The notes beneath the pieces were generated by a model. The model saw only the letters and a list, made by a program, of their open reading frames with translations, had not been told where the DNA came from and searched no databases. This document shows, piece by piece, positions 23,966 through 64,000 of a DNA stretch of 64,000 bases (positions are counted from its first letter, which is position 1; the number at the start of each line of letters is the position of its first letter). A program made the position numbers and the translations under genes. Origin of the DNA: a virus; IMG/VR virus record IMGVR_UViG_3300009506_000006, positions 40,171-104,170 of that record. One strand, written 5' to 3'.

Positions 23966-25177
23966 TTACTGGCGCAATGCGGTAACTGGATTCGCATATG
24001 TCAGCGGAACTTCACGAAACGCATTCGAATCAATCCAGTTGAGATCAATCGATATGTTGCGGTTGCCTCTGGCTAAATATTCCGGACTGCGTATAAAGCC
24101 AAAATACACATCGCTTGGCCTGATGCCGGCTGTCAAATAATTGCTCCAGTGTTCCAACCCGCCGCTGTCGGGTTCCCGTCCAAGCAAGTAGCGGTACAAT
24201 ATAGTTGGGAAATCTGTAACAAATTTAAATCTGGCGGATCTTTGGGCGGTCAGATCGATGTAATAATTTCCATATTCGTAAGATCTGGCAATGTCACTGC
24301 CTTCATGCCATTCATTCCAAGTTTCTACCAGAACGATATTGCAGTTGCTGATCTTCGACCAGTTGCGTCGATACCATTCTCCGCCTTGTCGATTTACATA
24401 CCCGCGTATTGGTCTTTGCGTTGCCCGATCATCATAACCTGGACTGACAGAACAGACATCATTGATATAATAACCAGGATTTGCAGTATCAAATCGATAA
24501 TTCATATCTGCAGTAAACGGACTATTGTCGTCGGCTATAATCCAGGGACTGATTCCAAATTCATTTTGGAAGCATGTCTTGATATGTTGGATGAACGCAT
24601 CATTTGCAGTCTGCATATGAGCAGGATGATAAAATATGATCAGTGGCTTGCCATCGATAAGCATCCAACACCGACGTGGAACATAGTTAAAAAATTCCTG
24701 GATTTCACGCCAGACGAGGTACCACTCCTTTTCATTGGATAAATCGCGACCTATCATGATCGATGTGTCATAAAACATTCCGACTTTAGGTGTTGGGCCT
24801 GTTCGTTCAATGAGTACCTGGCGTAGTTTAGCCATGCCTACATGAGACCAATCGAAATTATCCCAAGCCTTACCCCACCACACCGGCAGGATGAAATCAA
24901 TATTGGCTAAGACGACCTGATCAAGCATGTCGTTCCACCATTCAGCGGATGCATATGAAAATTGTGGATAATCCAAATAATCCTGTCCGGTCCAGGTCCA
25001 ATAGTGTGTGGTGCAAGCATCGGATCCGTCGCTGTTCCAGATGTGCTCATTCGAATCTTTATACCAGTAGAACAGATATGTCCCAACCGATCTGGTTTCT
25101 ACGGCTGCAGCGTTAGTTAACAGAATGGAACTGATCAGTAGGATTGCTATCAGGCTTACTTTTTTCATGTTCGTCAA
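23966..25177 (-). CDS. Exported GH99-like glycoside hydrolase with C-terminal DUF4214-like domain
   Basis: Signal peptide; YLFYWY, IDFILPVWWG, VETWNEWHEGS; LYRYLLGREPDSGGLEHW...FIRSPEY. Confidence 0.7.
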   Translation of the reverse strand: MTNMKKVSLIAILLISSILLTNAAAVETRSVGTYLFYWYKDSNEHIWNSDGSDACTTHYWTWTGQDYLDYPQFSYASAEWWNDMLDQVVLANIDFILPVWWGKAWDNFDWSHVGMAKLRQVLIERTGPTPKVGMFYDTSIMIGRDLSNEKEWYLVWREIQEFFNYVPRRCWMLIDGKPLIIFYHPAHMQTANDAFIQHIKTCFQNEFGISPWIIADDNSPFTADMNYRFDTANPGYYINDVCSVSPGYDDRATQRPIRGYVNRQGGEWYRRNWSKISNCNIVLVETWNEWHEGSDIARSYEYGNYYIDLTAQRSARFKFVTDFPTILYRYLLGREPDSGGLEHWSNYLTAGIRPSDVYFGFIRSPEYLARGNRNISIDLNWIDSNAFREVPLTYANPVTALRQ

Positions 25178-32527: not shown

Positions 32528-32884
32528 CTAACTGGGCAGCATGATGACATCCATGTCAGCGTAATACGACAGTCCGCTGGCGGGTGTGTAGCGTGGCTGT
32601 CCGGTGAACTTGAATGTCTGTGAAGTCTCAAGCCGTGGATGATCTTTTGTAAAAGTCAGGCTCCCGCCTTCCAGCGTGGTGTTGAAGAACTCATCGAATA
32701 CCTCGGTTTGAGATTTGGTCATGTATATGCGCCAATGCATTGGAGTCGGTGCGCTGGTAGCTCGACGCCGTGACTTCGGAGGTCCGACATCCATCTGAGT
32801 GTGGATGCTGTTTGTCGGCAGTTCTTCTTCGAATCCGTCCTGCAGAATGTAATCCGGCAGGCATCCCGGCCATGCGCTAGGCAT
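32528..32884 (-). CDS. Distal tail protein (gpM-like)
   Basis: WPGCLP...MDVGPPKSRRR...FDEFFNTTLEGGSLTF. Confidence 0.85.
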   Translation of the reverse strand: MPSAWPGCLPDYILQDGFEEELPTNSIHTQMDVGPPKSRRRATSAPTPMHWRIYMTKSQTEVFDEFFNTTLEGGSLTFTKDHPRLETSQTFKFTGQPRYTPASGLSYYADMDVIMLPS

Positions 32885-35800: not shown

Positions 35801-36333
35801 ATCTCTGTCAATGCGTCATTTGTTTCAGCAGTTGAAAAGGCAACATCGGACATGGTTTGTGCAAATTGCTGTTGTGTGCGTGTCCAGCCAGTTCTGAATG
35901 CCGTTGCAGCTGCTGTTGCCTTCTGCATTCCGGCCGCTGTTTGCTGTGCCGTGCCGGTGACTCCAACTGCTGCGCCCATGAGTCCTGTAGCTCCCGGGGC
36001 ACGTACCGCTGATACGGCAGCAAGCTTTTGTTTGGACGCGATCAGTTTGTTAACCACAGCAATTTCTTGCATGGTTTGCGTAATGGCTTGTTTCTGGGTC
36101 TGGACCTGCTGCTTGGTGGCGGCCTCGGTACCGGTAATGGACTTGAGGATTTGCTGATTCATGGTGGCGCGCTTGCTCATTTCGTCAGATGCGCCCTGCA
36201 TGGCAGACTTTTTGATTTTTTCCATAGCCTGCATTTTTTGCATAGCCCGCTCAGCCGCGTTTTCGATTTGCTTCAAATCCCGGGTTGCCTGCTCTTTACC
36301 TTGAAGCTCGACCTTGATATAGATGTCAGCCAT
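32884..36333 (-). CDS. Tail tape measure protein
   Basis: 1149 aa, helical Ala/Gln-rich, C-terminal HTGG...DEYPAILQHGETVIP; canonical position. Confidence 0.9.
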   Translation of the reverse strand: MADIYIKVELQGKEQATRDLKQIENAAERAMQKMQAMEKIKKSAMQGASDEMSKRATMNQQILKSITGTEAATKQQVQTQKQAITQTMQEIAVVNKLIASKQKLAAVSAVRAPGATGLMGAAVGVTGTAQQTAAGMQKATAAATAFRTGWTRTQQQFAQTMSDVAFSTAETNDALTEMSVLQNKLYSNLRPLGTASPFYGPQIDDLNTIKSLQGKVFSAQGTKEYDRVLQSVTRDWTDIRDAIRETADMGLNEMTKIIRADTLPSIGKLEAGMTRVRRTVGALEVGTKEWARQSEILARMQIFKQELGSKDPLVRAQALSRYGREANQLFKEVDEGARKADKRMSVFNGRFAKMAVYMSGIAATIFVFQNLVQVIGAIMRPFLDLEKAAINLRQSFGATGSELKSLLKTVERADFSGAMNADKAAQQMADFKKQGFSSAEAMELLKSQIYELDTAMEDTVTGSLEKFKAGIRDLFRGLGATISDELKTVFDFIRKETAQERIEREFPEYFERNYPAKGKWGFRRGGLDVFVDKRSDVLMQNAEKILDAIRMPIDIGLPGSEADIRGEQAIRERTQRIIQNSNAALKTAHEVSGRMNEALIYDFKENLREITEALELFGESIGTIAGVRAELIYQQTRKQMQPFYDAAKTVYDERGQLTQIFYNEEAARIKHGADVLRRLGFGEAAKVIERQQMFALKQKAVLSKEFKDVGYLSEKQVKAMESMYTDTKYYDPRLEKYERLRASMKKYETIERLGESARPEAEYIEALEMYEVDQKVMAKRMELQKKFFSETNIMSTQYYEDRATQINTETELAIKGGQKASQAYRIKAKRMQKLDDESTAYAVSKWEDMYQKGGDMTDAYYEHRKKLIIRDRDETIEATKDIAGAWTKFQRLMADLESERILAKSTSKSYDAIEARRLQMMVKPITAAQRGMETLNQILAATEDGFQSLFGQVFSSEITNAKDMLSSLGNHFMSVVQNMAAKALAANLMQSLFGNLMQGGAGAGMASGLLPMLVSLFTPTTTTGYSGPMSTSPYRLMHTGGQESYISRMISPFVFAGAPRLHGGLAADEYPAILQHGETVIPRNGAMAAAPVDIVVNNYGNDNVKVQEQRQPGGRRQIQVSIAEDIYKRGPLAQSMENVYGLRRTGRNI

Positions 36334-45318: not shown

Positions 45319-45767
45319 GACAGCCCCATCTCCAGGTTATAAATTTGAAGCTTGAGCATGAATGAACAGATAAGTCCAGCTGCTGTTGTGTATAGTGCTG
45401 TTCCCATACCATGCGCCATATTTGCAATTGCCGCCTGCATACTATTAATGTTTGCAGCATCGATCTTGCAGAATACGGTGTCCAATGTGAACAAGAAACC
45501 AAACACGGTCCCGATCATACCAAGAGTCACGAACTTTTCAGCAAACCATTTGGCTGTATTGAGTTGACTTGCAGCAGTTGTTTTAATTTGATATGTTAAG
45601 ATACCGAGCTGTATAGAGAATATGATAAACAAGGTGAGGATCACGAAGCTGAGCTTTGTTAGATCTGCCTGGTTGACTTTTTCGAATAGGCTGTAATAGT
45701 ACATCAAAAAAAGTCCGACACCTATCATGCACATACAGAGCCACCATTTCAGAAAATATCTTTTCAT
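45297..45767 (-). CDS. MotA/TolQ/ExbB proton channel family protein
   Basis: Four hydrophobic helices; TLGMIGTVFG and MGTALYTTAAGL. Confidence 0.85.
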   Translation of the reverse strand: MKRYFLKWWLCMCMIGVGLFLMYYYSLFEKVNQADLTKLSFVILTLFIIFSIQLGILTYQIKTTAASQLNTAKWFAEKFVTLGMIGTVFGFLFTLDTVFCKIDAANINSMQAAIANMAHGMGTALYTTAAGLICSFMLKLQIYNLEMGLSCGIQDF

Positions 45768-46465
45768 GGTTCACCTTCATACGGGACAATGCCAATCTCA
45801 ATAGCACGTTGCATATTGATCCACTCAGTTTTGCGTTCCCATACTTCCCATTGCTCCTTGTCTTTAAGATTGGTTCTGTCCATCAGGATGTTGAAATACT
45901 GATCACGCAACAAATCAAACAACGCAGTCTGGCTTCTGAACTCAGAGCTTGATCCTTGAAGAGACGAACTTGCTTCGTGTATCATAAATACCGTGTTTGC
46001 AACCGCTGTGCGATTATCGAACGCTAGGAACACAGGAACCGCGGCACTGGCAATAAGACCGTTGGCGATAGCATGAAATTTAAAACCGTCCTTTTGGGCT
46101 TGTTGAATCAAACCGTACAACGCGAAGCCGACAAAGGCACTGCCTCCATACGAGTTGATAAACACTTCTGCTTCCGTAATGCCTTTAAGTTTTAAAATCG
46201 AAATATCGTTCCAGAAATCTTTATCTTCGAAGTCTAAATTATCGTAGATTTTCATGAACGCTTTGTCATTTGCAATGAATGTCATGCTCGAGAGCTTTGC
46301 TTCAAGCGGATCTTTTTTGCATTCGCATTGCTCCGATGTCGCATCTTTGTCGGAAGTTTCAGTTTCGTAAACTGTGAATAAGCCTCGATTCGCAGCATCA
46401 GCATGACCGTCGTGAACAGTCATCAAACATATAACGATCGATAATGCCAACAATGTCGTTTTCAT
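45764..46465 (-). CDS. ClpP-like peptidase with signal peptide
   Basis: FINSYGG, GLIASAA (Ser), FMIHEAS (His); N-terminal MKTTLLALSIVICL...HADA. Confidence 0.8.
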   Translation of the reverse strand: MKTTLLALSIVICLMTVHDGHADAANRGLFTVYETETSDKDATSEQCECKKDPLEAKLSSMTFIANDKAFMKIYDNLDFEDKDFWNDISILKLKGITEAEVFINSYGGSAFVGFALYGLIQQAQKDGFKFHAIANGLIASAAVPVFLAFDNRTAVANTVFMIHEASSSLQGSSSEFRSQTALFDLLRDQYFNILMDRTNLKDKEQWEVWERKTEWINMQRAIEIGIVPYEGEP

Positions 46466-50781: not shown

Positions 50782-51273
50782 TCAAGTTTCGTCATAACTG
50801 AAGGTCAATGTCTCGGCTGACAATGTTCCCGGGTTAGCCGTGCTGGCTACACCCATCTGCAAGCGCAGGAAGTCGCCTTTATACCCGGTCCCGGTATATG
50901 GTCCGGCGTTGTAGGTAGCCAGATTAATAGAACTTCCAGCCGTAGCTCCAAACACATCAGCGCCGGATATATCCGCATCTGTCTGAGTCTGGAAACTTGT
51001 GTGAGTATCGTAATCAACGGATACGCCAGTACCGAATCCACTGGATCCGTCTGTATACGCCGCCAAATTTTGGATATCCACACTGGGGGCGGAGTTAAAG
51101 TAAAACCGAAGCTGCTTGGTATAACTCCAGTCCTCGCCTCCTGCAGGGATCTGCAGCCGGTTGCTGGTGTCCACCGTGGTTTCATTGGCTGACTTGAAGC
51201 GCACGGTACCGGAGGTCTTGTCGACTCCGGTGTTAGTGTCTGTGACTTCATGAATCTGTACATCTGCGGCCAT
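50782..51273 (-). CDS. Probable virion structural protein
   Basis: Ala/Thr/Gly/Ser-rich beta-type sequence within the structural operon. Confidence 0.65.
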   Translation of the reverse strand: MAADVQIHEVTDTNTGVDKTSGTVRFKSANETTVDTSNRLQIPAGGEDWSYTKQLRFYFNSAPSVDIQNLAAYTDGSSGFGTGVSVDYDTHTSFQTQTDADISGADVFGATAGSSINLATYNAGPYTGTGYKGDFLRLQMGVASTANPGTLSAETLTFSYDET

Positions 51274-51384: not shown

Positions 51385-53544
51385 TTAAGTTGACGTTGCC
51401 GTCAAGCCAGGTCGTGTTATTGTTGCCGTAAAACCAGGCAATTCTATAGCTGCTGTGGCACTTGGCCTGCTAATGGACGCTGTCAGACTTTCTTTGGCTT
51501 TTGTCCATGCCAGGCTTAAGACAGTAATTGCGTCAAGCAAGGTCGTAATTCTGGATGTGACCTGTGCCGTAATAGCATCGAGTCCAATGAATTTGCTGAG
51601 TGTGCCGTACGCTATGGCATCCAATGCCGTGGTCTTAATTCGGCCATTATAAAGGCTAGCATCGATTGCCACGGTCTTGGTTAGACCTGTTTTATTAAGC
51701 AGGCTGTCTATGCCTGTTACAACTGTCATGGCTTTTCTCAGCGCAGCGTCGATCATGGTGTTGATGGTGTTAACCACATACAGGTGCGCATCCAACTGCA
51801 TGGTGTTGATGATTTGAGACTGCTGCAGCATGGCATCGAATGCCAAATCTTTGGTGACCTGCCCGATTAACAGCGCTTCGATCAGAGCCGAAATTGTTTT
51901 CGAGCCTGTATCAGACAGGATTGCGTCCAGAGAAGCCGTGATGGTTAGGCTTTTGTTGAGCAGCGCGTTCAGATCAACTGTGGCAATGACATTATTGGCG
52001 TTTAGCAGCGTATCGAGACTGACTGTGCGTGCATTCATTTTAAATAACACCGCATCGATGTCGGATGTCACGGTTAATCCAACTGCATGTAGCAGTGCGT
52101 CGATGTTGGACTCCGCAGTTAACCCGAGTTTATTCAACAGCGCGTCTAAGCTGGCGGTTGTTGCCATGCCGGCTTTGTTCAGCAGCGCGTCTATACTGGA
52201 CTCTACGGTTAGACCGCTATTTTGCAGGATCGCATCGATTGCAGCAGTTTTGGTTAAGCCTAGTTTGTTAAGCAGTGCGTCGATTGAGCTTTGCACGTAA
52301 CCGGCTGCCACTTCGTATAGCACGGCATCAAGGCTGTTGGTGATAGTCATACCGGCTTGATTGAGCAGTGCGTCGATTGACAGGCTGGTGGTAATGCCGA
52401 CTTTGTTTAGCAGTGCATCGATGCTGTTGGTAATCGTCGTGCCGGACTTGTTTAACAGTGCGTCCACATCGGTTGTAGTTGTGATCAGCTGCTTGAGCAG
52501 CGCGTCCAGAGACAGTGTGATCGGGATCGAGCCTTGCAGGTAAGCATCGAATGACAGTGTCGATGTAAGTGTCTTCTTGAGCAGTGCATTCAGGTCAACT
52601 GTCTGAGTATATGCAGCTGCTGATATCAGTATTGCATCTAAATCGACAGTTTTGGTTGACCCGACTTTATTAAGCAGCGCGTCCAGATCTGGTGTTTTGC
52701 TGTAAAGTTTGGACAGGATCGCATCGGCATCTGGCGTTTTGAGATTGCCGGCTTTGTTAAGCAACCCATCGATATAAGACGTCTTGAGATTGCCAGTCTT
52801 ATTAAGCAGCGCATCGATATCCGGTGTCTTGAGGCTGCCGACTTTGTTAAGCAGCGCATCCAGATCCGGTGTCTTGCTGTAAGTCTTAGACAGGATTGCA
52901 TCGGCATCTGTCGTCTTCAGATTGCCAGTCTTGTTGAGCAGCCCGTCGACATCTGGTGTTTTTAGGTTGCCGGTTTTGTTAAGCAGCCCGTCAATCTTCG
53001 GTGTTAGCGTGTATGTTGTAGCCTGAGTAGCCGTGAAAACTTGCGGGTATGTGTTGGCGCCGTAGGTCGCAGATGGCGGTGCCAGGACTGTAGCGGCATA
53101 GATCCGAAAGTAGTATGTTGTAGCTTGTGTGACATTCGCCGAGACCGGCACGATAGCGAAGTCTTCTTCATTGACATCGTTTTTGCCAAACTGTGTTGCG
53201 TATGTACCGCTTTCACGATACACACCGCCGTCCAAGGCAGCATCTGCGACTTTAGCGCCGGCTACTGTATTGCCTTCCGTGGCTTGTCCATTGGCATAAT
53301 TAAAATGCGCTGACGGTCCCAATGAGAACCAGTCGGATTGGTTTAGTGAATACTCCAGATACCAGACCGCAGCTGTGCTGTTGGCTCCACCGGTTTCGAC
53401 CAGCTCAACACGCAGCCTGATAATACTGGTGTTGTCTGCCAATATTGGCTTGGCGTTTTCGCCGGTCAGCGGAGTCGTGGGCTCAACAGCGTCGTTAGCG
53501 TACCAGCGCCAATCGCCTTGTACGGGTATGTAAGATGATGGCAT
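51385..53544 (-). CDS. Repeat protein with about 34 tandem 14-16 aa units (x-T-x-x-(L/I)-D-A-L-L-N-K), probable fibre/decoration
   Basis: Counted units from PKIDGLLNK to TLLDAITV; about 175-aa N-terminal domain. Confidence 0.75.
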   Translation of the reverse strand: MPSSYIPVQGDWRWYANDAVEPTTPLTGENAKPILADNTSIIRLRVELVETGGANSTAAVWYLEYSLNQSDWFSLGPSAHFNYANGQATEGNTVAGAKVADAALDGGVYRESGTYATQFGKNDVNEEDFAIVPVSANVTQATTYYFRIYAATVLAPPSATYGANTYPQVFTATQATTYTLTPKIDGLLNKTGNLKTPDVDGLLNKTGNLKTTDADAILSKTYSKTPDLDALLNKVGSLKTPDIDALLNKTGNLKTSYIDGLLNKAGNLKTPDADAILSKLYSKTPDLDALLNKVGSTKTVDLDAILISAAAYTQTVDLNALLKKTLTSTLSFDAYLQGSIPITLSLDALLKQLITTTTDVDALLNKSGTTITNSIDALLNKVGITTSLSIDALLNQAGMTITNSLDAVLYEVAAGYVQSSIDALLNKLGLTKTAAIDAILQNSGLTVESSIDALLNKAGMATTASLDALLNKLGLTAESNIDALLHAVGLTVTSDIDAVLFKMNARTVSLDTLLNANNVIATVDLNALLNKSLTITASLDAILSDTGSKTISALIEALLIGQVTKDLAFDAMLQQSQIINTMQLDAHLYVVNTINTMIDAALRKAMTVVTGIDSLLNKTGLTKTVAIDASLYNGRIKTTALDAIAYGTLSKFIGLDAITAQVTSRITTLLDAITVLSLAWTKAKESLTASISRPSATAAIELPGFTATITRPGLTATST

Positions 53545-54163: not shown

Positions 54164-54901
54164 TTATTCAATTACGTCAACTAGTCCCCAAACTCTGGCT
54201 TGATCCGCATCGAACCAAGTTGTTTTGGTTTCCAGTGCTTCCCACTGGTCTTTCGACAATTTGGAATTTTGTACCAATTTGCCGATATAGCGGTCGCGTA
54301 GCAGTCCCATCAGCTCGTTCTGCGACCGGATATCCGAGGCGGTTTCACGTCCCGGCCATTTCCACAGAGCAGCTTCGTGCACCATGAAAATCGTTCCGGG
54401 TGCGGCCAGGCGATTGTTGCATACAGCAAATACCGGAACTGCTGCGCTGGCGATAATGCCGGACGCATGGGCCGTGACACGAAATCCCTTACGCTGTGCA
54501 CGTTCTATTTCGTCGGCTAATGCCAACCCTGAAAACGCATCGCCTCCAGATGAATTGATAAATAAATTGATATCCCGAATGTCAGTCATGTGATACAGAT
54601 AGCATAAATCGTTCCATAGACGCGTTACGTCAGCAACCGACAACCCGGAAAAAATCTTGACAAAGGCTTGATCCTTGGCGATGAAAGACAGTTGAGACAA
54701 AGACCCTTCCGGATTGGGAACCTCCATTGATTTGTTGATTTTTTGACTTCCGCTATCAGTGGAACTGACTTCAACATTGGCAGGTTCGCTGGCTTGGACC
54801 TTGACGATGACTTCTTGCGGTTGACGTTTTTGAATCGGAACAGTTGCCGCACATCCCACAAATAGACACAATGCACCGATAAAGATAATGAGTTGTTTCA
54901 T
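54164..54901 (-). CDS. ClpP-like peptidase, predicted lipoprotein
   Basis: LCLFVGC lipobox; FINSSGG, GIIASAA, FMVHEA, WGLVD. Confidence 0.85.
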   Translation of the reverse strand: MKQLIIFIGALCLFVGCAATVPIQKRQPQEVIVKVQASEPANVEVSSTDSGSQKINKSMEVPNPEGSLSQLSFIAKDQAFVKIFSGLSVADVTRLWNDLCYLYHMTDIRDINLFINSSGGDAFSGLALADEIERAQRKGFRVTAHASGIIASAAVPVFAVCNNRLAAPGTIFMVHEAALWKWPGRETASDIRSQNELMGLLRDRYIGKLVQNSKLSKDQWEALETKTTWFDADQARVWGLVDVIE

Positions 54902-54927: not shown

Positions 54928-57900
54928 TTATTTTATAGTTACTCCGTTAAATAGTACACCCGAGCTTGCTGAGTCCCACCACTCGCATGCTCCAGTATCG
55001 ATAGTGTGCCATGGTTCTTTACCGTAATAATCGGTTTGCCCCGAGATTCCGGTTGGGGTTCCAGCGTCAACGCTTGGATCGGTGGATGAATCGGAGCAGT
55101 AGTTCGAGTCAAGAGAAGGATTGGCGGATGCCTCGTCTGATACTATAATTTCAGCGGCACTTTCTCCGTTCCACGCGCTTATGGAAGTATAGTCCACAGA
55201 ATTTGATGTCCATTTGGGGCTGGCCATTCCATAATACAAATTGTGGTTGAACGTATTCGCCCCTCCGTCGCCAGCATCAGCATCCACAAAGACGTAGTAA
55301 TCCATCTTGTCGCCCCAGATGATATTATTTATGATGGTATTACTATCGGTCCCCGCGTCTGCGACCCTGATGCCATAGTCATCGTATCCAACACGTCTAT
55401 CAACTGTATAGATGATTGTATTATTTGCAATTATATTCGATGCATCCCGCAAATGAATTCCTGATACAGACGGGTTTTTAATTATATTTCCGTATACATT
55501 AAAATTCTGCGAATTAATGGTCAAACCATATCCATTGCCGACATGATCTACTACAGCACCTGGATTTTCAACATAATTCCTTGCAACCTCTCCTGACGTG
55601 GCATAAATCACAGATATTCCGCCTTCGCCGGAATTCACGACGCTGTTATCGGTTATATTTACCGTCCCGCCTTCTGTTTCTGATGCAGTCACAACTATTC
55701 CAAGATCACCGTAGCCTCCACTGCAAATATTTATTGTGTTATTTGTTACGGACACTGTCGGTGCTACGGTATTGGGACTAAGATCAAGATCGATGCAATC
55801 AGTACTATATGCAGGACAACTGCTGCCTTCCGTTGATATAGTGTTATTATTAACAGATATGGAAGTTATATTGCCTACTGACCATCCTTTAATAACGTAA
55901 TTGTTTCCCCAATCTCCAACAAAAGTATTGTTGTCTATTACTGCTGTGCCAGAATAGACAATAGCCATATTTCCATTATTGGTGAATGTGCTGTTCTTTA
56001 ATTGATGCCCAGTTCCATAAAACATTACTCCGTTATTTGTGTTTCCGGAAAATTCACACCCATCTATCACTACGTTTTCATGGGCAGCGTTCGAAAGGGA
56101 GACGGCGTAGTTTGTAGAATTCTTTATTGCACAGTCATTTAGTTCAAAATCATTTACCGGATCGACTGAAGCCGCGAACACCAGTGCCTGAGTGTTTGTC
56201 TTATTATTCGCATCGAACTCAATACCTTCGATATGCCAATAATCGCAACTGTTGAACGTAATAAAAGTTGTTCGGTCTGTGCTTAGTTTCAGAATGGGAC
56301 GTGCGCCAGATCCATATGTAGTAACAGTAATGGGATTTAGTGCTGTCCCGTCTTTATCCACATAAGCGTCGTAATCTTCAGTGAAGGTATCTCCCTTGTT
56401 GACATGAAGTTTATCCCCAGCACTTAATGCGTCAAATGCGTTGTGGAAATTGTTCCAGGCATATCCGGCACCTTCTCCGCAGAGCTGTCCTGTGCCGTCA
56501 CCATTGCTAGCGCAATATCGGAGATAATAAAGTGCCTGCCATTCGCAAGCACCAATATCAATAGTGTTTACAATCGGATTTTCATAGTAATCTGTCTGTC
56601 CACTGATTCCCGTTGGAGTGCCAGCATCAACACCGGGATCGGTGGGGGAGTCTGGGCAATAACCGGAAAGGGATGGATTGCTTAGAAATGAGTTGGTGGT
56701 ATCTTGGCTGCTTGCAGATTGCCACTCTGACAAATCGTCTATGTCAGTAGTCGCGCCCCAGGTCCAGTTATCGTCTCCATCTCCTCCGTAATAACCATTG
56801 GCATTGATGTTTCCTGCAGATGGCTGATGATTTGCGGAAGCTGCCGAAACGTATTGAGCATCTAAATCGCTGTCGTCTAAATAGACGATATTGTTTTTCG
56901 CAACCGTACTTGAACTTCCGTAAGATTCAAATTTAATTCCAACTTCGTATATGTTGATTAGAAGATTATTATATATCGACACCGCTCCAACATAGTAAGT
57001 TCCATTTTGTCCATATAAATCAAAGCCATTCGGTGCGCCATCCACTACGTTATTATGGAAGACGTTACCACTCATAATATCGCGGCCATTATCTAAATCA
57101 TAACAATACAGAACAAACCCTGCTTTCCGTGACGAAGCGGCTGCTTCAATCACGCTGGCTTTGTTTCTTCTCCAGATTCCATTTGTCCCACCAACTATCC
57201 AGAATCCACTTTTGCGAGCGTTAATAACCGTGTTGTCTTCTACAACCACTCCGGTTTGTGCAGCATCCAGGTCCGTAACGATCCCCGTATCACCACAATT
57301 TCCCGTAATGTTCACAGTGTTATTTTTGACGGTAAAACTTGTTGACGGCGTCTGCGAGACATTAAAAGATACTTCAATACCGTCGCAGTTCCCGTTAGGG
57401 CTTGACAGGTCGTTATCATCTAAGACAATTCCATTCCCGTATACCTGCGTCAGGTGGATGCCGTACCCACTGCAATCATAGCATGAATCATCTTGCGGAT
57501 CAGTTGTTGTCGCACTTCCGGTTATTGGGTCCGTAATTGTTTCAGCGTTATCGAATTCACCAGATTGACTTTTTAGATATAACGTCCCCGATGTTCCGTT
57601 ATCTACCTGCGCTACTATCGTAGCACTTGCTCCGGAAGAACTTCCGGTTACGGTTTGACCAACCGTAAAGTTTCCATTAGGTTCTTCCGCTTGCAATTCA
57701 AAAGCTAAAGACGAATACCAGCCCCATCCCGTAATTGTGTTTCCAATGACTGTGGTATTCGGGACGTTGCCACTTAATACAATGCCTTTGCCGCAATCCG
57801 TGGCAATATTGTTGCTGACTGTGGCACTGCTTGCCATATTTTGAAGACGCGCACCCTGCAAGCAATTCGTGAACTGGTTATCGTCTATCAGGTTTGTGCC

Positions 57901-58401
57901 GCCCCCTGTGGCTGTAATTGCCAGAGCGTAGGCATACCCGACATAGAAATTCTGAAACGTACAACTCTGGACCGTAACATTGCTGGTCGTTCCAGTTATA
58001 ATCAGGCCCTGTCCATTTCCGCCGGTTATACCCGATCCATCAAACGTGACATTATCCCAAATCGTGGTGGTTCTGTTTGTAACTTGAGCCGTATAATTAA
58101 TGCTTCCAACTCCACTGATCTGCCCATTTTGCCATTTTTGATTATTAGCCTGGACGGTCAAGATAGAATCGGCATCAAGTTCTACTCCAGAATAGGTACA
58201 ATCACATAGATCAAAAACATTATCTGCCCCGAGTGTTGAGGATACTGCTTCTAAATCGGTCGCTCCAGTCCACGAACCTTCGTAAGAGCATGACGTGCTG
58301 TTATACTCAACGTTGCTTGCGCCGTCGCGGATATAGTATGTCGCTCCCCACCCATTAGCGGCAAATAGCAGGATACCTAATATGTAGATATATTTTCTCA
58401 A
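54928..58401 (-). CDS. Exported right-handed beta-helix protein, two tandem modules
   Basis: Signal peptide; many PbH1-like (I/V)xNN repeats; each half ends in NP.L...DAGTPTGISGQTDYY...IDxGACEW. Confidence 0.8.
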   Translation of the reverse strand: MRKYIYILGILLFAANGWGATYYIRDGASNVEYNSTSCSYEGSWTGATDLEAVSSTLGADNVFDLCDCTYSGVELDADSILTVQANNQKWQNGQISGVGSINYTAQVTNRTTTIWDNVTFDGSGITGGNGQGLIITGTTSNVTVQSCTFQNFYVGYAYALAITATGGGTNLIDDNQFTNCLQGARLQNMASSATVSNNIATDCGKGIVLSGNVPNTTVIGNTITGWGWYSSLAFELQAEEPNGNFTVGQTVTGSSSGASATIVAQVDNGTSGTLYLKSQSGEFDNAETITDPITGSATTTDPQDDSCYDCSGYGIHLTQVYGNGIVLDDNDLSSPNGNCDGIEVSFNVSQTPSTSFTVKNNTVNITGNCGDTGIVTDLDAAQTGVVVEDNTVINARKSGFWIVGGTNGIWRRNKASVIEAAASSRKAGFVLYCYDLDNGRDIMSGNVFHNNVVDGAPNGFDLYGQNGTYYVGAVSIYNNLLINIYEVGIKFESYGSSSTVAKNNIVYLDDSDLDAQYVSAASANHQPSAGNINANGYYGGDGDDNWTWGATTDIDDLSEWQSASSQDTTNSFLSNPSLSGYCPDSPTDPGVDAGTPTGISGQTDYYENPIVNTIDIGACEWQALYYLRYCASNGDGTGQLCGEGAGYAWNNFHNAFDALSAGDKLHVNKGDTFTEDYDAYVDKDGTALNPITVTTYGSGARPILKLSTDRTTFITFNSCDYWHIEGIEFDANNKTNTQALVFAASVDPVNDFELNDCAIKNSTNYAVSLSNAAHENVVIDGCEFSGNTNNGVMFYGTGHQLKNSTFTNNGNMAIVYSGTAVIDNNTFVGDWGNNYVIKGWSVGNITSISVNNNTISTEGSSCPAYSTDCIDLDLSPNTVAPTVSVTNNTINICSGGYGDLGIVVTASETEGGTVNITDNSVVNSGEGGISVIYATSGEVARNYVENPGAVVDHVGNGYGLTINSQNFNVYGNIIKNPSVSGIHLRDASNIIANNTIIYTVDRRVGYDDYGIRVADAGTDSNTIINNIIWGDKMDYYVFVDADAGDGGANTFNHNLYYGMASPKWTSNSVDYTSISAWNGESAAEIIVSDEASANPSLDSNYCSDSSTDPSVDAGTPTGISGQTDYYGKEPWHTIDTGACEWWDSASSGVLFNGVTIK

Positions 58402-58460
58402 TTACTCGTAACTCCTGTTCGATATATACCGGTCATGGTTGCAGGAATTGGAGGTTCACC
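58385..58460. repeat. 76-bp direct repeat, copy 1
   Basis: One mismatch versus 60112..60187. Confidence 0.95.
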
Positions 58461-60128
58461 GTCTCCTGGGTTTCCTTCAATGACTCCTTCTATCGCAGCA
58501 TTGAGCAAGTCTATATCTGCGCCCAAGTCCTCGCTATCCGTTCCAGCGTTCAGATAGGGACTACCACTGTCTAAATGGTAATCACCACTGCCATCCGCCT
58601 GATAATTCACAAATTGAATTGCAGCGACATTTTCTGGTGTTGTAACTCCTTGTGATGGATAACCCGATGCAGGCCATCCAACAGCGGCATTTTTTGTGCA
58701 TGACCAACCAGAATCCTGGCCACCGGGATAGGCAGCGTTCAGTGAAGCAGTCCCAGCAACCGAACCGTCTGCTTTGATCCCGTACGTACCCATATCTACG
58801 GTAATGTTATTAATAAAATCAAAACCATCAGCGCTGCTCTCATAAAGATACACCAAACGATTGCCGACATCATTGATGACCGTATTATGGTTTACGATTG
58901 TATCATTCACAGTCAGATTTTGTAAAAATATTCCGTTGCCGAGTGAGGTATTAATCATAAAAAGATTGTCGTGAAAATTAACACGTTCCATCGCTACCGA
59001 CGTATACGCGCCGGCCTTTGGTGTTATGTTAATTCCAAAACTCACATTAAGAATCTTGTTATATCGTATTGTCCAATCAGCAGATTCGGCCCAGTTATTG
59101 TTTCCTCCTTGATTTTCGCTTTTAAGGCGTATCGCATTATCCTGCACGTCAGCCCAGCAATTCTGGATGACGTTTCCTTCCACCAAGACCCTCTTGGCCA
59201 TTTTGCTTTCAATGACATTTACGCAATTCCAGTGCGCTCCATCCCACGACAGACGCTTGAATAAATAATTTTTTGTTATCGTAATATCAGATGGAATCAA
59301 GTCTGAGGCTTGGTTATCGGCTCCACCAAAAAAGATATTCATGCCACAAGCCTCAATAAAATTATTATAGATCAAAATCGGTCCGGATGTATTATATGCC
59401 CACACGCCCTGATTATCCACATCCGCTTTGATATTATCTATATAGCAGTTTATAACCGCTCCATAGGACACATCGAAACCCAAAGCTCGGGTTGTATAAT
59501 ACTCCTCATCAAGAGCGTGAAAATAGCATCTATCTATTGTTATATAGGTAGATTGGTTCGAAGAAGTTGTATTATTAAAACCCATCCACACCAGACTTGA
59601 ATGGGATGAACTTCCTGGGGGCATAAAAGCGATACCTACTAATCGGTAGTGGTGTGAATTTAGGGCAGAAGTCATGCATTTATACCCAGAGCTTCCGGAA
59701 GTTGGTTTTATGGTTGGCATATTAGACACATCGGAAGGGGAAACCCGTACTCCTTCTCCCGGCAAACTCGCAAGAGCGCTCGATATTATGTAGATCCATC
59801 CTGAACCAGAACTTTTGTTTGGCAGAACATAGCCATTGTCAGATGCTGGCGCTGTATAGCTCGATCCGGCTGTCAGAATTATAACATCATTTAATTCCGA
59901 ATTTGTCAGAGCATATAAAAAACTGCACCCCGTTCTATTGCCTTCTCCGGTGCCAGGCACACTACTACTTGACGTATTAGAGGCTGTCCAGGTGTTTCCA
60001 GTGGGCAATGAATATGTTGTATTCACTTCCAATTGCGGAAGTGTTGCAGAAGTCGCTGTTGCAGCACTGGATATACTTGGAAAGACTAATACAATTATAA
60101 AAAGTAATGTATAGATATATTTTCTCAA
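58398..60128 (-). CDS. Exported right-handed beta-helix (pectin-lyase fold) protein
   Basis: Signal peptide; ITIDRCYFH, ILIYNNFIE, ITITKNYL; GDYHLDSGSPYLNAG...GAD; tail PATMTGIYRTGVTSN. Confidence 0.8.
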   Translation of the reverse strand: MRKYIYTLLFIIVLVFPSISSAATATSATLPQLEVNTTYSLPTGNTWTASNTSSSSVPGTGEGNRTGCSFLYALTNSELNDVIILTAGSSYTAPASDNGYVLPNKSSGSGWIYIISSALASLPGEGVRVSPSDVSNMPTIKPTSGSSGYKCMTSALNSHHYRLVGIAFMPPGSSSHSSLVWMGFNNTTSSNQSTYITIDRCYFHALDEEYYTTRALGFDVSYGAVINCYIDNIKADVDNQGVWAYNTSGPILIYNNFIEACGMNIFFGGADNQASDLIPSDITITKNYLFKRLSWDGAHWNCVNVIESKMAKRVLVEGNVIQNCWADVQDNAIRLKSENQGGNNNWAESADWTIRYNKILNVSFGINITPKAGAYTSVAMERVNFHDNLFMINTSLGNGIFLQNLTVNDTIVNHNTVINDVGNRLVYLYESSADGFDFINNITVDMGTYGIKADGSVAGTASLNAAYPGGQDSGWSCTKNAAVGWPASGYPSQGVTTPENVAAIQFVNYQADGSGDYHLDSGSPYLNAGTDSEDLGADIDLLNAAIEGVIEGNPGDGEPPIPATMTGIYRTGVTSN

Positions 60129-60187
60129 TTACTCGTAACTCCTGTTCGATATATACCGGTCATGGTTGCAGGAGTTGGAGGTTCACC
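60112..60187. repeat. 76-bp direct repeat, copy 2
   Basis: One mismatch versus 58385..58460. Confidence 0.95.
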
Positions 60188-61921
60188 ACTTGTATATTCG
60201 TATGCTCCGATATCTGGATTGGAACCCACGAGTAATATTGTGTCGTAATCATTGAACGAGGCATAGAGGGTCACTGCCGCACCGTTGGACCACGCGCTGA
60301 GGGAAGTATCTAATGACAGGGTTCCGGCCGGTTCGGTGCCGTAGCTTATTCCGGTGATCTTCGCTGTTTCTATTCCACTATTTGTTATCACCGCAATTTT
60401 GTCACCGACCCCATAAGAGGTGCCGAACTTAGAGTTCCACTCAGTCGCCCAATATGAATACCAGAAAAATCGAGCATCAGCTACCGCAATGCTCGATCCG
60501 GATGATGCACTCGTCGCGGTCGTTAGCCATCTTCCGGCATTTATCAAACAAGAGGAAGATTGTAGCGTAAAATCTGGAGCATCGGGGTCAGTATCAGGAT
60601 CTACAAATTTAGGATCGAGTCCCGAACATCCAGTTGAATTGTGAATGTTCTGGCTCCATGCTGATGGATAACTACTTTCTACTGATGCCACCGTGACCAT
60701 TTCATTCGCATTTATAATTGCTCCGCCGTCCTGCCATCCACTACTATACCCCATAAAGAAATTATTTTTAAACTCGCTCTCTCCGAGACTATCGGGATAA
60801 TGCAATGTAACCTCTCCAGCATCCCAATCGTCTCCATAGTGTTGTGAGTTTTTGGCCCATACGTTATTATAAAATTTGTGGTAAATAGTTATATTGTTAT
60901 TCCAAAAATGTAGGCCTGCTTGGTCATTGTACCAAAATATGTTATTATACCACCTGTTGGATTCTCCTGTGTATTGATCACAGCCATAAGATCCGTTATC
61001 ACTTCCCCCATAAAAATCCTGTGAGCAGTGATGGCCGACATTGTAGCGAATAACATCATGAGACGATCCATAAATTAATATTGGAGATTTTTGATGGTTT
61101 ACCGGACCCTGGTTCATTCCAGTACCGATATTTCGTTCAACCAGAGTTTCATCGGCTTCTATGCTACTCAGATAGCCAATGCCATAACTCACATTATTGG
61201 CTATCACCTCATTATTAATTCCCGCGCTGCCACTCCCATATATACTGATATTGTCGTGACAGCCTTTTGATAAAGTGTTATTTGATATGCGCGAATATCT
61301 GCCAAACACTGATATGCCATAGCCAGTGTATCCATCTACGTCGCAGATCCCAACACCTTCCACTTCGTTGTCGTGAACATATGAATAGTCCCCAAAGATG
61401 CAGATGGCAGATTGTACCCATGTAAATGACCAACTATCATTTACACCAATAACCGCACAGTTTTTTATCTCTATATAATCTCCATTGCCATTGGCGTAAA
61501 TTCCATAACCAGTTTTGTTTGTACCAGTAGGTCTAAGTTCAATTCCGTCTATTACCCAATATGCGTTCTGGATATTAAATACTCCATCATATGTCCCGCC
61601 AGTACTCATGGTCCTAAATATAGGAGGGCCATAGGTTTCGGTTTGCCATGCTTGGATCGTTATTCTATTGACGGCGGTTCCGCTTGCAGCCGAAGTAAAT
61701 TTATCAGTAGTATCGGTATATACCCCACCCCTTACATGCAGCGTTTCCCCTGCACTGAGAAGCGAATCCACATAACCGAGCGTCAGACACGGATTCGCAG
61801 AATTTTGGCAATCGTTTTCAGTATCCGTGCCGATCGGAGACATGTATATGTCATTCTGCGCGAAAACGCGTAGTGACAATAGTAGAAAAATTAGAAAGAT
61901 AAAAATTATGATTTTTTTCAT
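60125..61921 (-). CDS. Exported right-handed beta-helix protein (DUF1565-like N-terminus)
   Basis: Signal peptide; IYMSPIGTD..DC...NPCLT...GETLHVRGG; tail PATMTGIYRTGVTSN. Confidence 0.8.
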   Translation of the reverse strand: MKKIIIFIFLIFLLLSLRVFAQNDIYMSPIGTDTENDCQNSANPCLTLGYVDSLLSAGETLHVRGGVYTDTTDKFTSAASGTAVNRITIQAWQTETYGPPIFRTMSTGGTYDGVFNIQNAYWVIDGIELRPTGTNKTGYGIYANGNGDYIEIKNCAVIGVNDSWSFTWVQSAICIFGDYSYVHDNEVEGVGICDVDGYTGYGISVFGRYSRISNNTLSKGCHDNISIYGSGSAGINNEVIANNVSYGIGYLSSIEADETLVERNIGTGMNQGPVNHQKSPILIYGSSHDVIRYNVGHHCSQDFYGGSDNGSYGCDQYTGESNRWYNNIFWYNDQAGLHFWNNNITIYHKFYNNVWAKNSQHYGDDWDAGEVTLHYPDSLGESEFKNNFFMGYSSGWQDGGAIINANEMVTVASVESSYPSAWSQNIHNSTGCSGLDPKFVDPDTDPDAPDFTLQSSSCLINAGRWLTTATSASSGSSIAVADARFFWYSYWATEWNSKFGTSYGVGDKIAVITNSGIETAKITGISYGTEPAGTLSLDTSLSAWSNGAAVTLYASFNDYDTILLVGSNPDIGAYEYTSGEPPTPATMTGIYRTGVTSN

Positions 61922-62541
61922 TGCAAGGTATACAAGGTAAATTGAGCATCACGATCTTGGTCTACACCACCGTAAAATGCGTCGTACGCTGTGGTAGCAT
62001 AGCAAGTCGTGGTTAGCGTTGAGTTCCAAAGCAATTCGGCTGGGCTTGCAAATGCCGTTACTAAATGGATGAAATAATTTCCGCTTGGGTCCGGATATTC
62101 GTGTCCCGTTGTATTATCCCAAGTAAAGACTTTTTCTGTGCAAGGACTTCCGTTGCTTACATCTATATCATTGCTATTTCCTCCATATTTAGTCCCTGTC
62201 GCGTTAATATCGGACCATATTTCTATGTGAGTAGTTATCGTTGATTCGTAGTAGCTTGCGAGCCAATAAGTAATTTTACAAATTTGTATGGCACTTGCGT
62301 TGTTTATTGCCTGTCCCTTTGGTAATGCACCGCCTCGTTCTCCGCTTGATCCACAACCCGACGCATCGATGAGTAGGGTACAGGTTAGCTCTGGTTCTCC
62401 GCCAGGGGGAGGACCTGTTATCAGAATAAACGCAGCAGCGTTCGGGGTTAATGCTGGCAGCTTGTCGGGTGGAGGACTGTAGCCAAGCGCAAACCCGGTT
62501 ATCGCACAGACAAAATAGAATATTAAGATTTTCTTTAGCAT
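61918..62541 (-). CDS. Exported hypothetical protein
   Basis: MLKKILIFYFVCAITGFA signal; Pro-rich linker; Cys pairs. Confidence 0.7.
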   Translation of the reverse strand: MLKKILIFYFVCAITGFALGYSPPPDKLPALTPNAAAFILITGPPPGGEPELTCTLLIDASGCGSSGERGGALPKGQAINNASAIQICKITYWLASYYESTITTHIEIWSDINATGTKYGGNSNDIDVSNGSPCTEKVFTWDNTTGHEYPDPSGNYFIHLVTAFASPAELLWNSTLTTTCYATTAYDAFYGGVDQDRDAQFTLYTLQ

Positions 62542-62930
62542 TACGGCACCTCAATCGTAATGACGGTCGGTTTGGTAGGTCGGATATACATAACCGATGG
62601 CAAGGTGTCAGCTGGAGGGCTATACGGTGTGCCATCTCGCGTCCACAGCAAACGATTTGATCTTTCGCTTTCACCGTAACTGTTATAGGCGGTCATTTCA
62701 AAAGAGTATTCAACGCCCTGCGCAAAGTACTGCTCTGCCATTGCCATTGTTCTTTCCGTTCCGACGTTTATCGTCTTGTTGTAAACCGTTGTCGGCTGAT
62801 TTGTCTGCCAGAAGTATAGCGTGAAACCGGCTACGTTTTGGCCATCGTGGTCCCAAGTAAAGGTTACGTCCGCTGCCTGCGCCGTAAATGTGCAAGCGAT
62901 GATTGCCAATGTAATAAGTAGTTTTTTCAT
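62541..62930 (-). CDS. Exported fibronectin type III-like protein
   Basis: Signal peptide; VTFTWD...GFTLY...YSFEMTAYNSYGESERSN. Confidence 0.8.
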   Translation of the reverse strand: MKKLLITLAIIACTFTAQAADVTFTWDHDGQNVAGFTLYFWQTNQPTTVYNKTINVGTERTMAMAEQYFAQGVEYSFEMTAYNSYGESERSNRLLWTRDGTPYSPPADTLPSVMYIRPTKPTVITIEVP

Positions 62931-62932
62931 GT

Positions 62933-64000
62933 TTAATCATCCTCATCCATGTCGTCAATCTTATACATAATTTTGATGCCTGTGACTTCTACATCGTTGG
63001 TGTCTGTATCTGTATCAGCATTCCTGTTTACGTAGACAAGCAAAGTATCACCGCCTGCTCCGCTAAGTGCTTCATCGATTGTGATTTCTGTGTAATATGT
63101 ATCATATTGCGACTCTGATGCTCCGAAGGTAGTAGTCGCTGAGTCGGCAGTTGTCCATGTATTGTCTACTTGATCCCCATTCCCACGGGCTTGAAGCTTG
63201 GCCTGGAAAATAACGGTTTGCGTATTCGTTCCAGCTGTTGTTGCAATCCAATGGACACCTACCTTCATTGCACTAGCTGTCCCGCCTTCCCAGTTTTCGG
63301 GCATCGGGATGGCGATTTCCATCGTTCCATCAGTAGCTCCGTCACATGTGCATGCGTAGAGATTGGGTCCGCTATTGATTTGATGTGCTGCCGGATCTTC
63401 GCAATTCGTGCCGTCTGCAATCAAAGCACCGGCTGAAACGGCAATTGACCTCCAAGATTTTTGGGTTGCAAGCACACTATCTATGGCAGTCGTCAGCAGC
63501 GTTGGGTTATAGTTGGTGTCGTCCGCATAAAGAATATATCCGGCAGTGTTTGTATTCATATACAAATCATCGCCAGATATTCTAAAATCATTGTTTAGGG
63601 TTAGTATATTTTCTCCGTTGTTTACTTGGAGTATGGAAGTAGTATCGTCCGCAGAATCTGAAATACTTAAGGTTGCGCCGTTATGAAGCGCAAGATCGAT
63701 TGCCAAGCTTGCGCTGCCAAGATGGATATCATTCAAATCTCCAAGAGCCGTCATTGTCATGTATGCTTGATAAGTCGGCGTGTCTGCAGATCTGAGGTAG
63801 AATGTTAACGTACCTTCATCACTATCGTTATTCCCAATAAGATAAGCTCCGATATCGTTTCCTTGATCACTGTCTTTGAAGTTAACTGTCGGTGTTGCTC
63901 CGATAATATCAATATCCATCGTAAAATCCGGAGACGTCCCGAAGACCAATGCTCCCGTTCCAGTTTCTCCGGTAACAGCGGAAGCCAGATTAGCGCTGGA
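62933..64000 (-). CDS. Fibre-like virion protein, C-terminal part (starts beyond right edge)
   Basis: Frame open to 64000: SSANLASAVTGETGTGALVFGTSP, a motif common in phage fibre-like proteins. Confidence 0.7.
   Translation of the reverse strand, partial: SSANLASAVTGETGTGALVFGTSPDFTMDIDIIGATPTVNFKDSDQGNDIGAYLIGNNDSDEGTLTFYLRSADTPTYQAYMTMTALGDLNDIHLGSASLAIDLALHNGATLSISDSADDTTSILQVNNGENILTLNNDFRISGDDLYMNTNTAGYILYADDTNYNPTLLTTAIDSVLATQKSWRSIAVSAGALIADGTNCEDPAAHQINSGPNLYACTCDGATDGTMEIAIPMPENWEGGTASAMKVGVHWIATTAGTNTQTVIFQAKLQARGNGDQVDNTWTTADSATTTFGASESQYDTYYTEITIDEALSGAGGDTLLVYVNRNADTDTDTNDVEVTGIKIMYKIDDMDEDD

Follow-up and report, generated by a model that had tools for sequence, protein, structure and literature searches.

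An apparently mobile late-operon module of predicted Sec-exported fibre, adaptor, and beta-helix proteins in an uncultured siphophage

We analyzed a 64,000-nucleotide (nt) stretch of phage DNA (hereafter, the window) that spans positions 40171-104170 of a single 107,865-bp contig (a 108-kb genome; IMG/VR virus record IMGVR_UViG_3300009506_000006). In this window, an array of five adjoining minus-strand genes at 54928-62930 encodes an FN3 protein, a small probable beta-sandwich protein, and three large beta-helix proteins, all with predicted Sec signal peptides. The array belongs to a module of approximately 14 kb (~13% of the genome) that lies inside the late structural operon and, judged from its occurrence in other phages, appears to be horizontally mobile. 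We consider it about an even chance that the module encodes late-exported degraders of envelope glycans, which would act outside the virion and are possibly held together by short terminal peptides (tags). An ordered exported module of this kind in a late structural operon has apparently remained undescribed so far.

In the direction of transcription, the array consists of p129 (62541-62930; 129 amino acids (aa), predicted signal-peptide cut AQA↓A, FN3), p207 (61918-62541; 207 aa, ALG↓Y, probable beta-sandwich), p598 (60125-61921; 598 aa, VFA↓Q, Pel9A-like right-handed beta-helix with a C-terminal tag), p576 (58398-60128; 576 aa, SSA↓A, right-handed beta-helix, also with a C-terminal tag), and p1157 (54928-58401; 1157 aa, GWG↓A, two tandem beta-helix modules). 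An earlier sequence-only reading had placed five minus-strand open reading frames (ORFs) at exactly these coordinates, and all five were recovered there, with neighboring stops and starts overlapping by 1-4 nt. The array is located between the capsid and neck genes. A 2-nt gap separates p129 from the upstream fibre gene p1295, to which it is coupled; the C-terminal part of this 1295-aa fibre lies at 62933-64000 (minus strand), and its gene extends to genome position 106990.

Signal peptides were called by reading the sequences and by our own hydropathy heuristic over 171 ORFs, using the criteria for Sec and signal peptidase I (SPase I), under which the n-region is basic, the hydrophobic h-region spans 7-15 residues, and the residues at -3 and -1 are small. 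In agreement with what had been claimed for them, this heuristic reading identified, in all five array proteins, a basic n-region, then a hydrophobic segment spanning 10-17 residues, and a small-x-small site. The hydropathy screen flagged 12 of the 171 ORFs. Six of these are consecutive, comprising the five array proteins and p245 (54164-54901, minus strand), a ClpP/S49-fold peptidase with a lipoprotein-type signal (LFVG↓C) encoded 26 nt downstream of the array, so that the exported run is longer than first claimed. A run of six signal peptides in a row arose in 1 of 200,000 shuffles (chance ~5e-6). Furthermore, p576, p598, and p129 have relatives with equivalent signal peptides, in which conservation starts directly past the predicted cleavage site. 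At the p576/p1157 junction, AGGAG stands ~10 nt ahead of the TTG start, and AGGAG also precedes the second TTG start. Given these homologues with signal peptides, the AGGAG ahead of both TTG starts, and the conservation of the junction in another phage, the upstream starts appear correct. All module members except p1295 were shown to carry predicted Sec or lipoprotein signals, and the module is coupled to the capsid and fibre genes.

Two further points raised in the sequence-only reading fared less well. Ordinary morons, which carry their own promoter and terminator, had been named as an alternative. This appears unlikely because the array is translationally coupled into the late operon by start/stop overlaps that span its whole length, and consensus scans, which are weak evidence, showed no excess of promoter-like (31 versus 30.4 expected) or terminator-like sites (15 versus 13.2). 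The array had also been described as rich in closely spaced Cys pairs. This feature is not distinctive: the array proteins contain 1.4-2.9% Cys against 2.0% in the proteome, mature p129 contains no Cys, p576 has no close Cys pairs, and C201 is the only Cys conserved in the p576 family. Enrichment in Cys or disulfides was thus rejected, and an argument from disulfides would rest on a feature that is not unusual.

Profile or structure comparison bore out the assignment of three beta-helix proteins (p598, p576, and p1157) and one FN3 protein (p129). The AlphaFold2 (AF2) model of p576, with a predicted local distance difference test (pLDDT) score of 88.3, is a beta-helix whose tag residues 555-576 are disordered. 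In the p576 family, Asn is invariant at positions 256, 287, 319, and 357, forming the Asn ladder of a right-handed beta-helix, and the polar residues D199, R200, D238, Q240, E307, and K309 are invariant in the helix core and groove. The 115 homologues found, mostly signal-peptide-bearing, constitute a widespread, uncharacterized secreted family, and the cellular relatives mostly carry signal or lipoprotein signals. Structural matches of p576 were the mannuronan epimerases AlgE6/AlgE4 (Z 28, root-mean-square deviation (rmsd) 2.3-2.4 Å, ~335 residues), the Vibrio biofilm polysaccharide lyase RbmB (Z 27.6), alginate epimerase/lyase (~27), the Sf6 tailspike (Z 26.4), PfbA (25.5), and PL6 lyases (~25). 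As these scores are nearly tied, what can be claimed from the model for p576 is only the general class of polysaccharide-processing beta-helix proteins. One group of p576 homologues (P0013, P0020, P0021, P0026, P0031, P0036, and P0041; loci L034/L035) has no signal peptide and is apparently circularly permuted, such that the ~75-residue N-terminal segment (LP..Y.DT.Y..PTG ... TAG.TF.G.F.L) stands at the C-terminus; P0026 lies amid small phage-like genes.

The ESM Atlas model of p598 matched Pel9A/DUF1565 clusters with template modelling (TM) scores of 0.62-0.72. Only one protein, P0002, was clearly homologous to it over the full length (28% identity, 98% coverage). P0002 matches PF22842, and its gene lies in a polysaccharide-synthesis locus, with GT2, PIG-L, MBOAT, DegT, and flippase genes as neighbors. 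The gene of the bacterial relative P0008 likewise has GT4, heparinase II/III, and UDP-glucose dehydrogenase genes on its flanks. In p1157, Pfam Beta_helix (PF13229) matched in four stretches (1.5e-26), together with NosD. Its two modules, at approximately residues 1-622 and 623-1157, are 32% identical (internal BLASTP 6e-27); module 1 ends in GACEW, module 2 opens with ALYYLRY, which resembles the mature N-terminus ATYYIRD, and the C-terminus is a tag variant, SGVLFNGVTIK. Thus, p1157 looks like a fusion of two cassettes after loss of the inner tag, stop, and signal peptide. By sequence, p576, p598, and p1157 gave nothing meaningful against Protein Data Bank chains, and p576, p598, and p207 gave nothing in PHROGs, Pfam, or NCBIfam (for p598, no Pfam match at E <= 0.01); a tblastn search of 50,697 phage records with p598 found no match.

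The remaining two proteins are small. Pfam fn3 (PF00041) matched p129 at 1.1e-6 (29.2 bits versus a cut-off of 25), opening at profile position 10. The AF2 model (pLDDT 91.7) contains six strands and begins at strand B, so that strand A is missing from the mature chain, and its Foldseek matches are FN3 domains with TM(target) ~0.7. The p129 family gave 362 matches at E <= 0.001, and among the best 150 of these, ~55 representatives are small signal-peptide proteins. Such small members (~115-145 aa) have a mature chain starting from FN3 strand B and a tail of the form (P)YxPPxDxLP ... xIxIxx; the conserved Pro-rich tail of p129 reads YSPPADTLP ... TVITIEVP. In the AF2 model, this tail has a pLDDT of ~85 and DSSP assigned no strand to it; folding back of the tail in cis as a canonical strand A was therefore not borne out. 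The fifth protein, p207, had been left as unknown; its ESM Atlas model (predicted TM score 0.67) matched beta-sandwich clusters at TM 0.58, which as a lead only makes it a probable lectin- or CBM-like beta-sandwich. Its N-terminus carries a YSPPPDKLP motif followed by a strand, and counterparts that share this N-terminal motif stand behind the FN3 gene in five other contigs (L024, L025, L031, L022, and L028).

A comparison of the gene ends revealed how the enzymes are built. The p598/p576 junction (60105-60187, minus strand) comprises the last 20 codons of p598 (its tag), the overlapping TGA/TTG, and the first codons of p576 (MRKYIY), and the p576/p1157 junction (58378-58460, minus strand) likewise runs from the last 20 codons of p576 (its tag) through the overlapping stop/start into the first codons of p1157. 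These two 83-nt copies are 96% identical, and similarity between p598 and p576 was detectable in their last 20 residues only. Shared ends were also observed in other contigs. A beta-helix enzyme of L024 has only its end in common with p598, with the junction DNA ~75% identical, and two unrelated signal-peptide proteins of L020 end in PRLVRGVTVRSGASIK and PRVVTGVSVVGGASIK, which match at 11 of 16 residues, with DNA 73% identical. Since these L020 peptides were kept at such DNA divergence, selection seems to have acted on the peptide. When eight C-termini from four contigs were aligned, a Pro-rich linker followed by the ~12-residue motif TG[VI]xxxG[VA][TS][SI][NK]-COOH became apparent. The gene comparisons showed the enzymes to be interchangeable cassettes, consisting of a signal peptide, a beta-helix, a Pro-rich linker, and a ~12-residue C-terminal tag. 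The enzyme tags resemble FN3 strand A, and the p129-tail motif recurs at the mature N-terminus of p207-like proteins; the tags may be functional docking strands of a donor-strand-like kind, or leftovers of beta-helix-FN3 fusions.

The distribution of the module differs from that of the phage that carries it. In phages with a 60-66% identical capsid protein (L007 and L014), the array is absent, and ~1.3-2 kb of unrelated small genes occupy the capsid-to-neck interval. Conversely, L024, which encodes a terminase and portal by PHROGs, shows no BLAST match to this genome (E 1e-5) for its proteins outside the array, yet encodes, in order, a signal-peptide fibre, an FN3 protein (84% identical to p129), a p207-like protein, two signal-peptide proteins, one of which is a beta-helix with the tag GETPASPSMTGITSNGVTSN, and a p1157-like protein. 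These results, absence from capsid relatives and 84-91% identity in the unrelated L024, indicate a mobile accessory module. The same or analogous arrays occur in at least six other viral or metagenomic contigs. The order of fibre, FN3, p207-like protein, and signal-peptide beta-helix was also found in L025, L031, L022, and L028; in L020/L021 the order is rearranged, with six consecutive signal-peptide proteins just upstream of a lysozyme; and in L026 an FN3 domain stands behind the signal peptide of a 786-aa protein encoded beside the terminase. In L025, an 89-kb viral contig, approximately eight glycosyltransferase-like cytoplasmic genes and a 314-aa lipoprotein gene precede the exported array (L025:2543-9014), and glycosylation genes are near the arrays in the window and L020 too. 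In the phage-like contig L020 (positions 1-2741), a polyvalent protein of >1500 aa with a weak ART-PolyVal match is followed by radical-SAM and epimerase genes. A metagenome scan yielded three loci only, and a scan of genome contigs with the p129 family gave a single weak match, identifying neither a host nor a prophage.

The fibre genes upstream of the array also point to export. The C-terminal 369 aa of p1295 are 91% identical to the 775-aa signal-peptide-bearing fibre of L024, and its nearest Atlas clusters are viral and fibre-like. Ahead of p1295 lie a 280-aa fibre-like ORF (p280) and then, at the contig start, an open ORF with a signal peptide and CBM5/12 (L001 2-769, minus strand). The two contig ends overlap by ~140 nt (L001:1-140 versus L003:19726-19865), and the genome is therefore circular. 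In this overlap, 5 nt (CGGAC, minus strand) are missing from the contig-end copy (L003 ~19751), whereas the contig-start copy and contigs of two other studies contain them; when they are restored, the signal-peptide/CBM ORF and the 280-aa ORF form a single reading frame for one predicted exported fibre of ~531 aa. A ~120-nt repeat unit, encoding DLQTFAGITPSANVQSLLGAADYAAMKTLM, occurs four times at fibre gene ends. At the p280/p1295 junction (L003:18960-19040), this unit has a 28-nt deletion (L003 ~18990-19000) that leads to a stop and a restart at the next Met, owing to which p1295, as assembled, has no signal peptide. Loose contig ends in the source run suggest heterogeneity at this junction. 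Counterparts of p1295 in L024 (775 aa) and L020 (1136 aa) have signal peptides, and in some genomes the fibre may be a single large signal-peptide-bearing gene. The upstream gene had been taken for a virion fibre, a role that is revised here: the first fibre ORF as well as the counterparts in two phages bear signal peptides. Thus, on these gene comparisons, the upstream fibre is probably exported too.

For the role of the array, two alternatives had been offered: late-secreted degraders or adhesins, and appendages assembled outside the cytoplasm for the virion. The former fits best, whereas the latter gained no support. Exported degraders are favored because the beta-helix directly follows the signal peptide without a virion-anchor domain; because the nearest relatives are signal-bearing bacterial proteins, two of them in polysaccharide-synthesis loci; because the block is absent in capsid relatives, yet common to the unrelated L024; and because the enzyme family also exists in a separate tailspike format, in P0018. 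This protein is 45% and 34% identical to p576 over two segments, starting at p576 residue 30, and has a 120-aa N-terminal extension in the position of the signal peptide, with neither a signal peptide nor a C-terminal tag. Its gene adjoins a tail-fibre gene upstream of a GH19 lysin, on a contig that encodes a serine recombinase, and the phage may be temperate. The contrast with P0018 is the strongest argument that the signal-peptide-plus-tag format is another way of delivering the enzymes, distinct from a virion spike. Unlike in a virion tailspike, the beta-helix of p576 runs from residue 30 right after the signal peptide, and the array sits between capsid and neck genes.

In the mechanism that we propose, the module would supply, in this order, one or more fibres, the FN3 protein without strand A, the small beta-sandwich, three beta-helix enzymes resembling lyases, hydrolases, or epimerases, and the ClpP-fold lipoprotein. 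Late in infection, these proteins would be exported by Sec, lose their signal peptides, and attain their folds either in the periplasm or on the surface of the cell. The enzymes would then cut or modify the host's own extracytoplasmic polysaccharide, whether capsule, extracellular polysaccharide (EPS), or sheath. As a consequence, the matrix would be loosened for progeny release, and receptors on cell debris would be destroyed; the Llp protein of T5, which blocks its receptor, follows a similar logic. More speculatively, the terminal peptides (enzyme tags, FN3 tail, and p207 N-terminus) could dock the proteins on each other or on the fibre as a multi-enzyme complex. A particular form of this complex, in which the strand-A-less p129 accepts the enzyme tags while the p129 tail and p207 N-terminus chain the adaptors to the exported fibre, would produce an enzyme fibre similar to a cellulosome, either displayed by the dying cell or loaded onto virions at lysis, and seems rather doubtful to us. 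Extracytoplasmic assembly through docked strands, whether or not virions are loaded, would be categorically new. Processing of the exported array proteins by p245 is pure speculation.

Several points weigh against exported degraders. In a diderm host, Sec export reaches the periplasm only, and an outer-membrane route was not identified. The assembled p1295 has no signal peptide. The structural Z scores of 23-28 are a near tie over lyases, epimerases, hydrolases, adhesins, and tailspikes, so catalysis itself is presumed from the models. The tags could be vestiges of truncated FN3 domains. Furthermore, virion appendages would likewise agree with the phage-fibre-like C-terminus of p1295 and with the position of the module amid head, neck, or packaging genes in the window, L024, and L026.

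The possible vestigial nature of the tags leads to the alternative in which the exported enzymes are soluble and independent, without forming a complex. In this view, recombination at conserved linkers would have split beta-helix-FN3 fusion genes into cassettes, leaving behind the common tags, the FN3 tail, and the p207 motif as remnants of linkers between domains. Bacterial relatives are indeed often fused to FN3, Big_2, or CBM domains, and some homologues end in FN3 strand-A-like sequences (PPSNLRIQ and APTGLGVQ) without an adjoining FN3 gene; downstream of the bacterial homologue P0008, none was found, and the contigs that carry P0009, P0122, P0123, and P0126 were too short to be informative. 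In addition, the tandem protein P0154 (231 aa) shows that a p129-type tail equals a linker plus the first strand of the next FN3 domain, and the near-identity of the two window junctions in DNA suggests a recent duplication. However, the tag peptide was kept in L020 despite 27% DNA divergence and recurs over four contigs, and the FN3 protein, p207-like protein, and tagged enzymes always occur together in constant order. We therefore regard both the absence of a complex and the origin of the tags by splitting of fusion genes as unlikely.

Virion appendages, by comparison, would require that the fibre, adaptors, and beta-helices fold in the periplasm and attach to finished particles through their C-terminal tags when the inner membrane is breached. 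Docking after lysis would be an undescribed assembly route; we know of no tailed phage that assembles virion appendages outside the cytoplasm, and none was found in the literature searched. Besides the location among head, neck, and packaging genes in three genomes and the resemblance of the p1295 C-terminus to phage fibre tips, the conserved tags and terminal motifs imply some assembly, and the phage devotes a considerable share of its genome, within the structural operon, to the module. However, the conserved tags and the exported fibre indicate assembly without tying it to the virion. Phages with the 60-66% identical capsid protein build particles without the module, which has also passed between mutually unmatched phages, so that a matched docking site on the virion is not evident. 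Moreover, a complete J-type tail tip is already encoded, and the relative in virion format, P0018, has an N-terminal extension in place of a signal peptide. Taken together, an attachment of the array proteins to virions is distinctly unlikely.

The glycosyltransferase clusters near the arrays in the window, L025, and L020 raise a different possibility, namely, that the exported enzymes and cytoplasmic glycosyltransferases together alter or strip the receptor glycan, causing superinfection exclusion or conversion. The many other envelope-directed proteins encoded in this genome agree with this idea. Nevertheless, the array is coupled to late structural genes and not to early or lysogenic ones, leaving little time for exclusion, and we give this explanation a low probability. 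Non-catalytic adhesins, similar to pneumococcal PfbA, might instead stick infected cells or debris to particles or neighbors. The Z score of PfbA is near those of enzymes, the first fibre ORF contains CBM5/12, and the small proteins are FN3- and lectin-like; in contrast, the invariant polar groove residues of the p576 family are as expected for an active site, and its relatives lie in EPS loci, where processing enzymes are usual, making adhesins very improbable. Finally, it is hardly credible that the hydrophobic N-termini act as signal anchors without cleavage or result from wrong start calls, with the proteins membrane-tethered or cytoplasmic until lysis. In public gene calls for this contig, p598 does start at residue 27 or 51, and p576 at residue 182, and two starts are TTG. 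However, homologues with signal peptides of their own align from just past the cleavage site, downstream starts would leave 80-540 nt uncovered and remove conserved residues, both TTG starts are preceded by AGGAG, L024 has a conserved form of the junction, and small-x-small cleavage motifs are present in five of five proteins.

Phage depolymerases are usually seen as virion tailspikes or as excess soluble copies of tailspikes. If exported degraders are the correct explanation, a Sec-delivered fibre with adaptors and swappable enzymes would be a second way in which phages deliver glycan-degrading enzymes. Such a route would matter for the way in which progeny in sediments and sludge free themselves of capsule, EPS, or sheath, for the avoidance of re-adsorption to cell debris, and for the share that viral lysis has in the turnover of extracellular polysaccharide. 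The cassette of signal peptide, enzyme, and tag would be a natural, reusable plug-in system, and if the tag is a docking peptide that acts by strand complementation, it would be a new device for protein assembly.

In public runs, the phage itself was traced to a metagenome of marine sediment. Two further studies, one labeled "soil metagenome" and the other carrying a coded organism label, contain fragments with an identity of at least 99%, and the array is unchanged across all three separate studies that hold the phage. Its best terminase match among the 50,697 phage records is only 41% identical, and it is therefore considered an uncultured siphophage. The large terminase and portal are encoded on the plus strand, and the scaffold, major capsid protein, neck genes, and a tail-tube-type protein on the minus strand. 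The J-type tail-tip protein has 2094 aa, and a 1149-aa ORF at 32884-36333, without a PHROGs match, is a tape-measure candidate by size and position alone.

The peptidase p245 matched Pfam CLP_protease (2.5e-17), and a paralogue with a Sec signal (44% identical) is encoded at 45764-46465 (minus strand). Against NCBIfam Clp_rel_HeadMat, p245 scored 64.6 bits, below the cut-off of 120 for this prohead-protease family. The ClpP-fold paralogues are unlike an ordinary prohead protease because they have export signals and because a separate scaffold protein is encoded beside the capsid gene. Other N-termini resembling signal peptides or lipoprotein signals were found at window positions 23966-25177, 21728-22234, and 8336-8710 (minus strand), and at genome positions 22747-23196 and 30069-30686. 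Among the products of these ORFs are a 403-aa protein encoded just behind the J-type tail-tip gene and a 168-aa lipoprotein, 47% identical to the lipoprotein after the lysozyme in L020; by this similarity, the latter may have a lysis-related or spanin role. A 719-aa protein without a signal peptide (51385-53544, minus strand) is built from ~40 copies of a 13-15-residue repeat, D[AG]LLNK.G..KT., and matched no known family; at its N-terminus is a domain similar to the 163-aa protein encoded at 50782-51273.

Compared with known systems, the array combines features that have been seen separately. In the literature, as far as our incomplete coverage extends, we found neither tailed-phage virion proteins nor multi-gene arrays with signal peptides, and neither an ordered late-operon module of exported fibre, adaptors, and enzymes nor its C-terminal tag. 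Donor-strand systems (chaperone-usher and type V pili) resemble the array in that p129 is an Ig-like domain without an edge strand and its partners have terminal strand-like peptides, and cohesin-dockerin cellulosomes in that several enzymes have one docking-type tag. However, in the array it is strand A, at the N-terminus, that is missing, and the candidate donor lies at the C-terminus, so that the resemblance is a lead only; chaperone, usher, cohesin, and dockerin were not detected among the phage proteins in Pfam, PHROGs, or NCBIfam.

The best structural likeness is to RbmB, AlgE4/AlgE6, Pantoea WceF, and PL6/PL9 lyases (Z 27-28, rmsd 2.3-2.5 Å, 312-336 residues), which are secreted or depend on a signal peptide and whose genes lie in or near EPS loci, as is also the case for cellular p576 and p598 homologues. 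Among these, WceF is described with a tailspike-like fold (PMC7949094). In contrast to the array enzymes, they are host-encoded and host-regulated, and the array enzymes have no detectable sequence similarity to solved structures. Tailspikes and depolymerases (P22, Sf6, HK620, Det7, the CBA120 tailspike proteins (TSPs), Klebsiella KP32gp38, and phi29 gp12) share the right-handed beta-helix (Z 23-26) and are likewise phage-encoded, present as several different enzymes per genome, and diversified through modular exchange. They have, however, an N-terminal virion anchor and no signal peptide and are assembled in the cytoplasm, whereas the conserved element of the array is the C-terminal tag. For export, precedents exist: signal peptides are known on ~5% of prophage carbohydrate-active enzymes (CAZymes) and are thus rare (PMC13507307), and Sec-exported phage endolysins are established, as is free depolymerase from plaque halos (PMC6116005). 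Exported phage CAZymes and lysins, such as fOg44 Lys44 and signal-arrest-release (SAR) endolysins, thus represent a precedent for phage use of the host Sec system, but these are single genes, whereas the array represents an ordered set of six to eight predicted exported proteins coupled to capsid genes.

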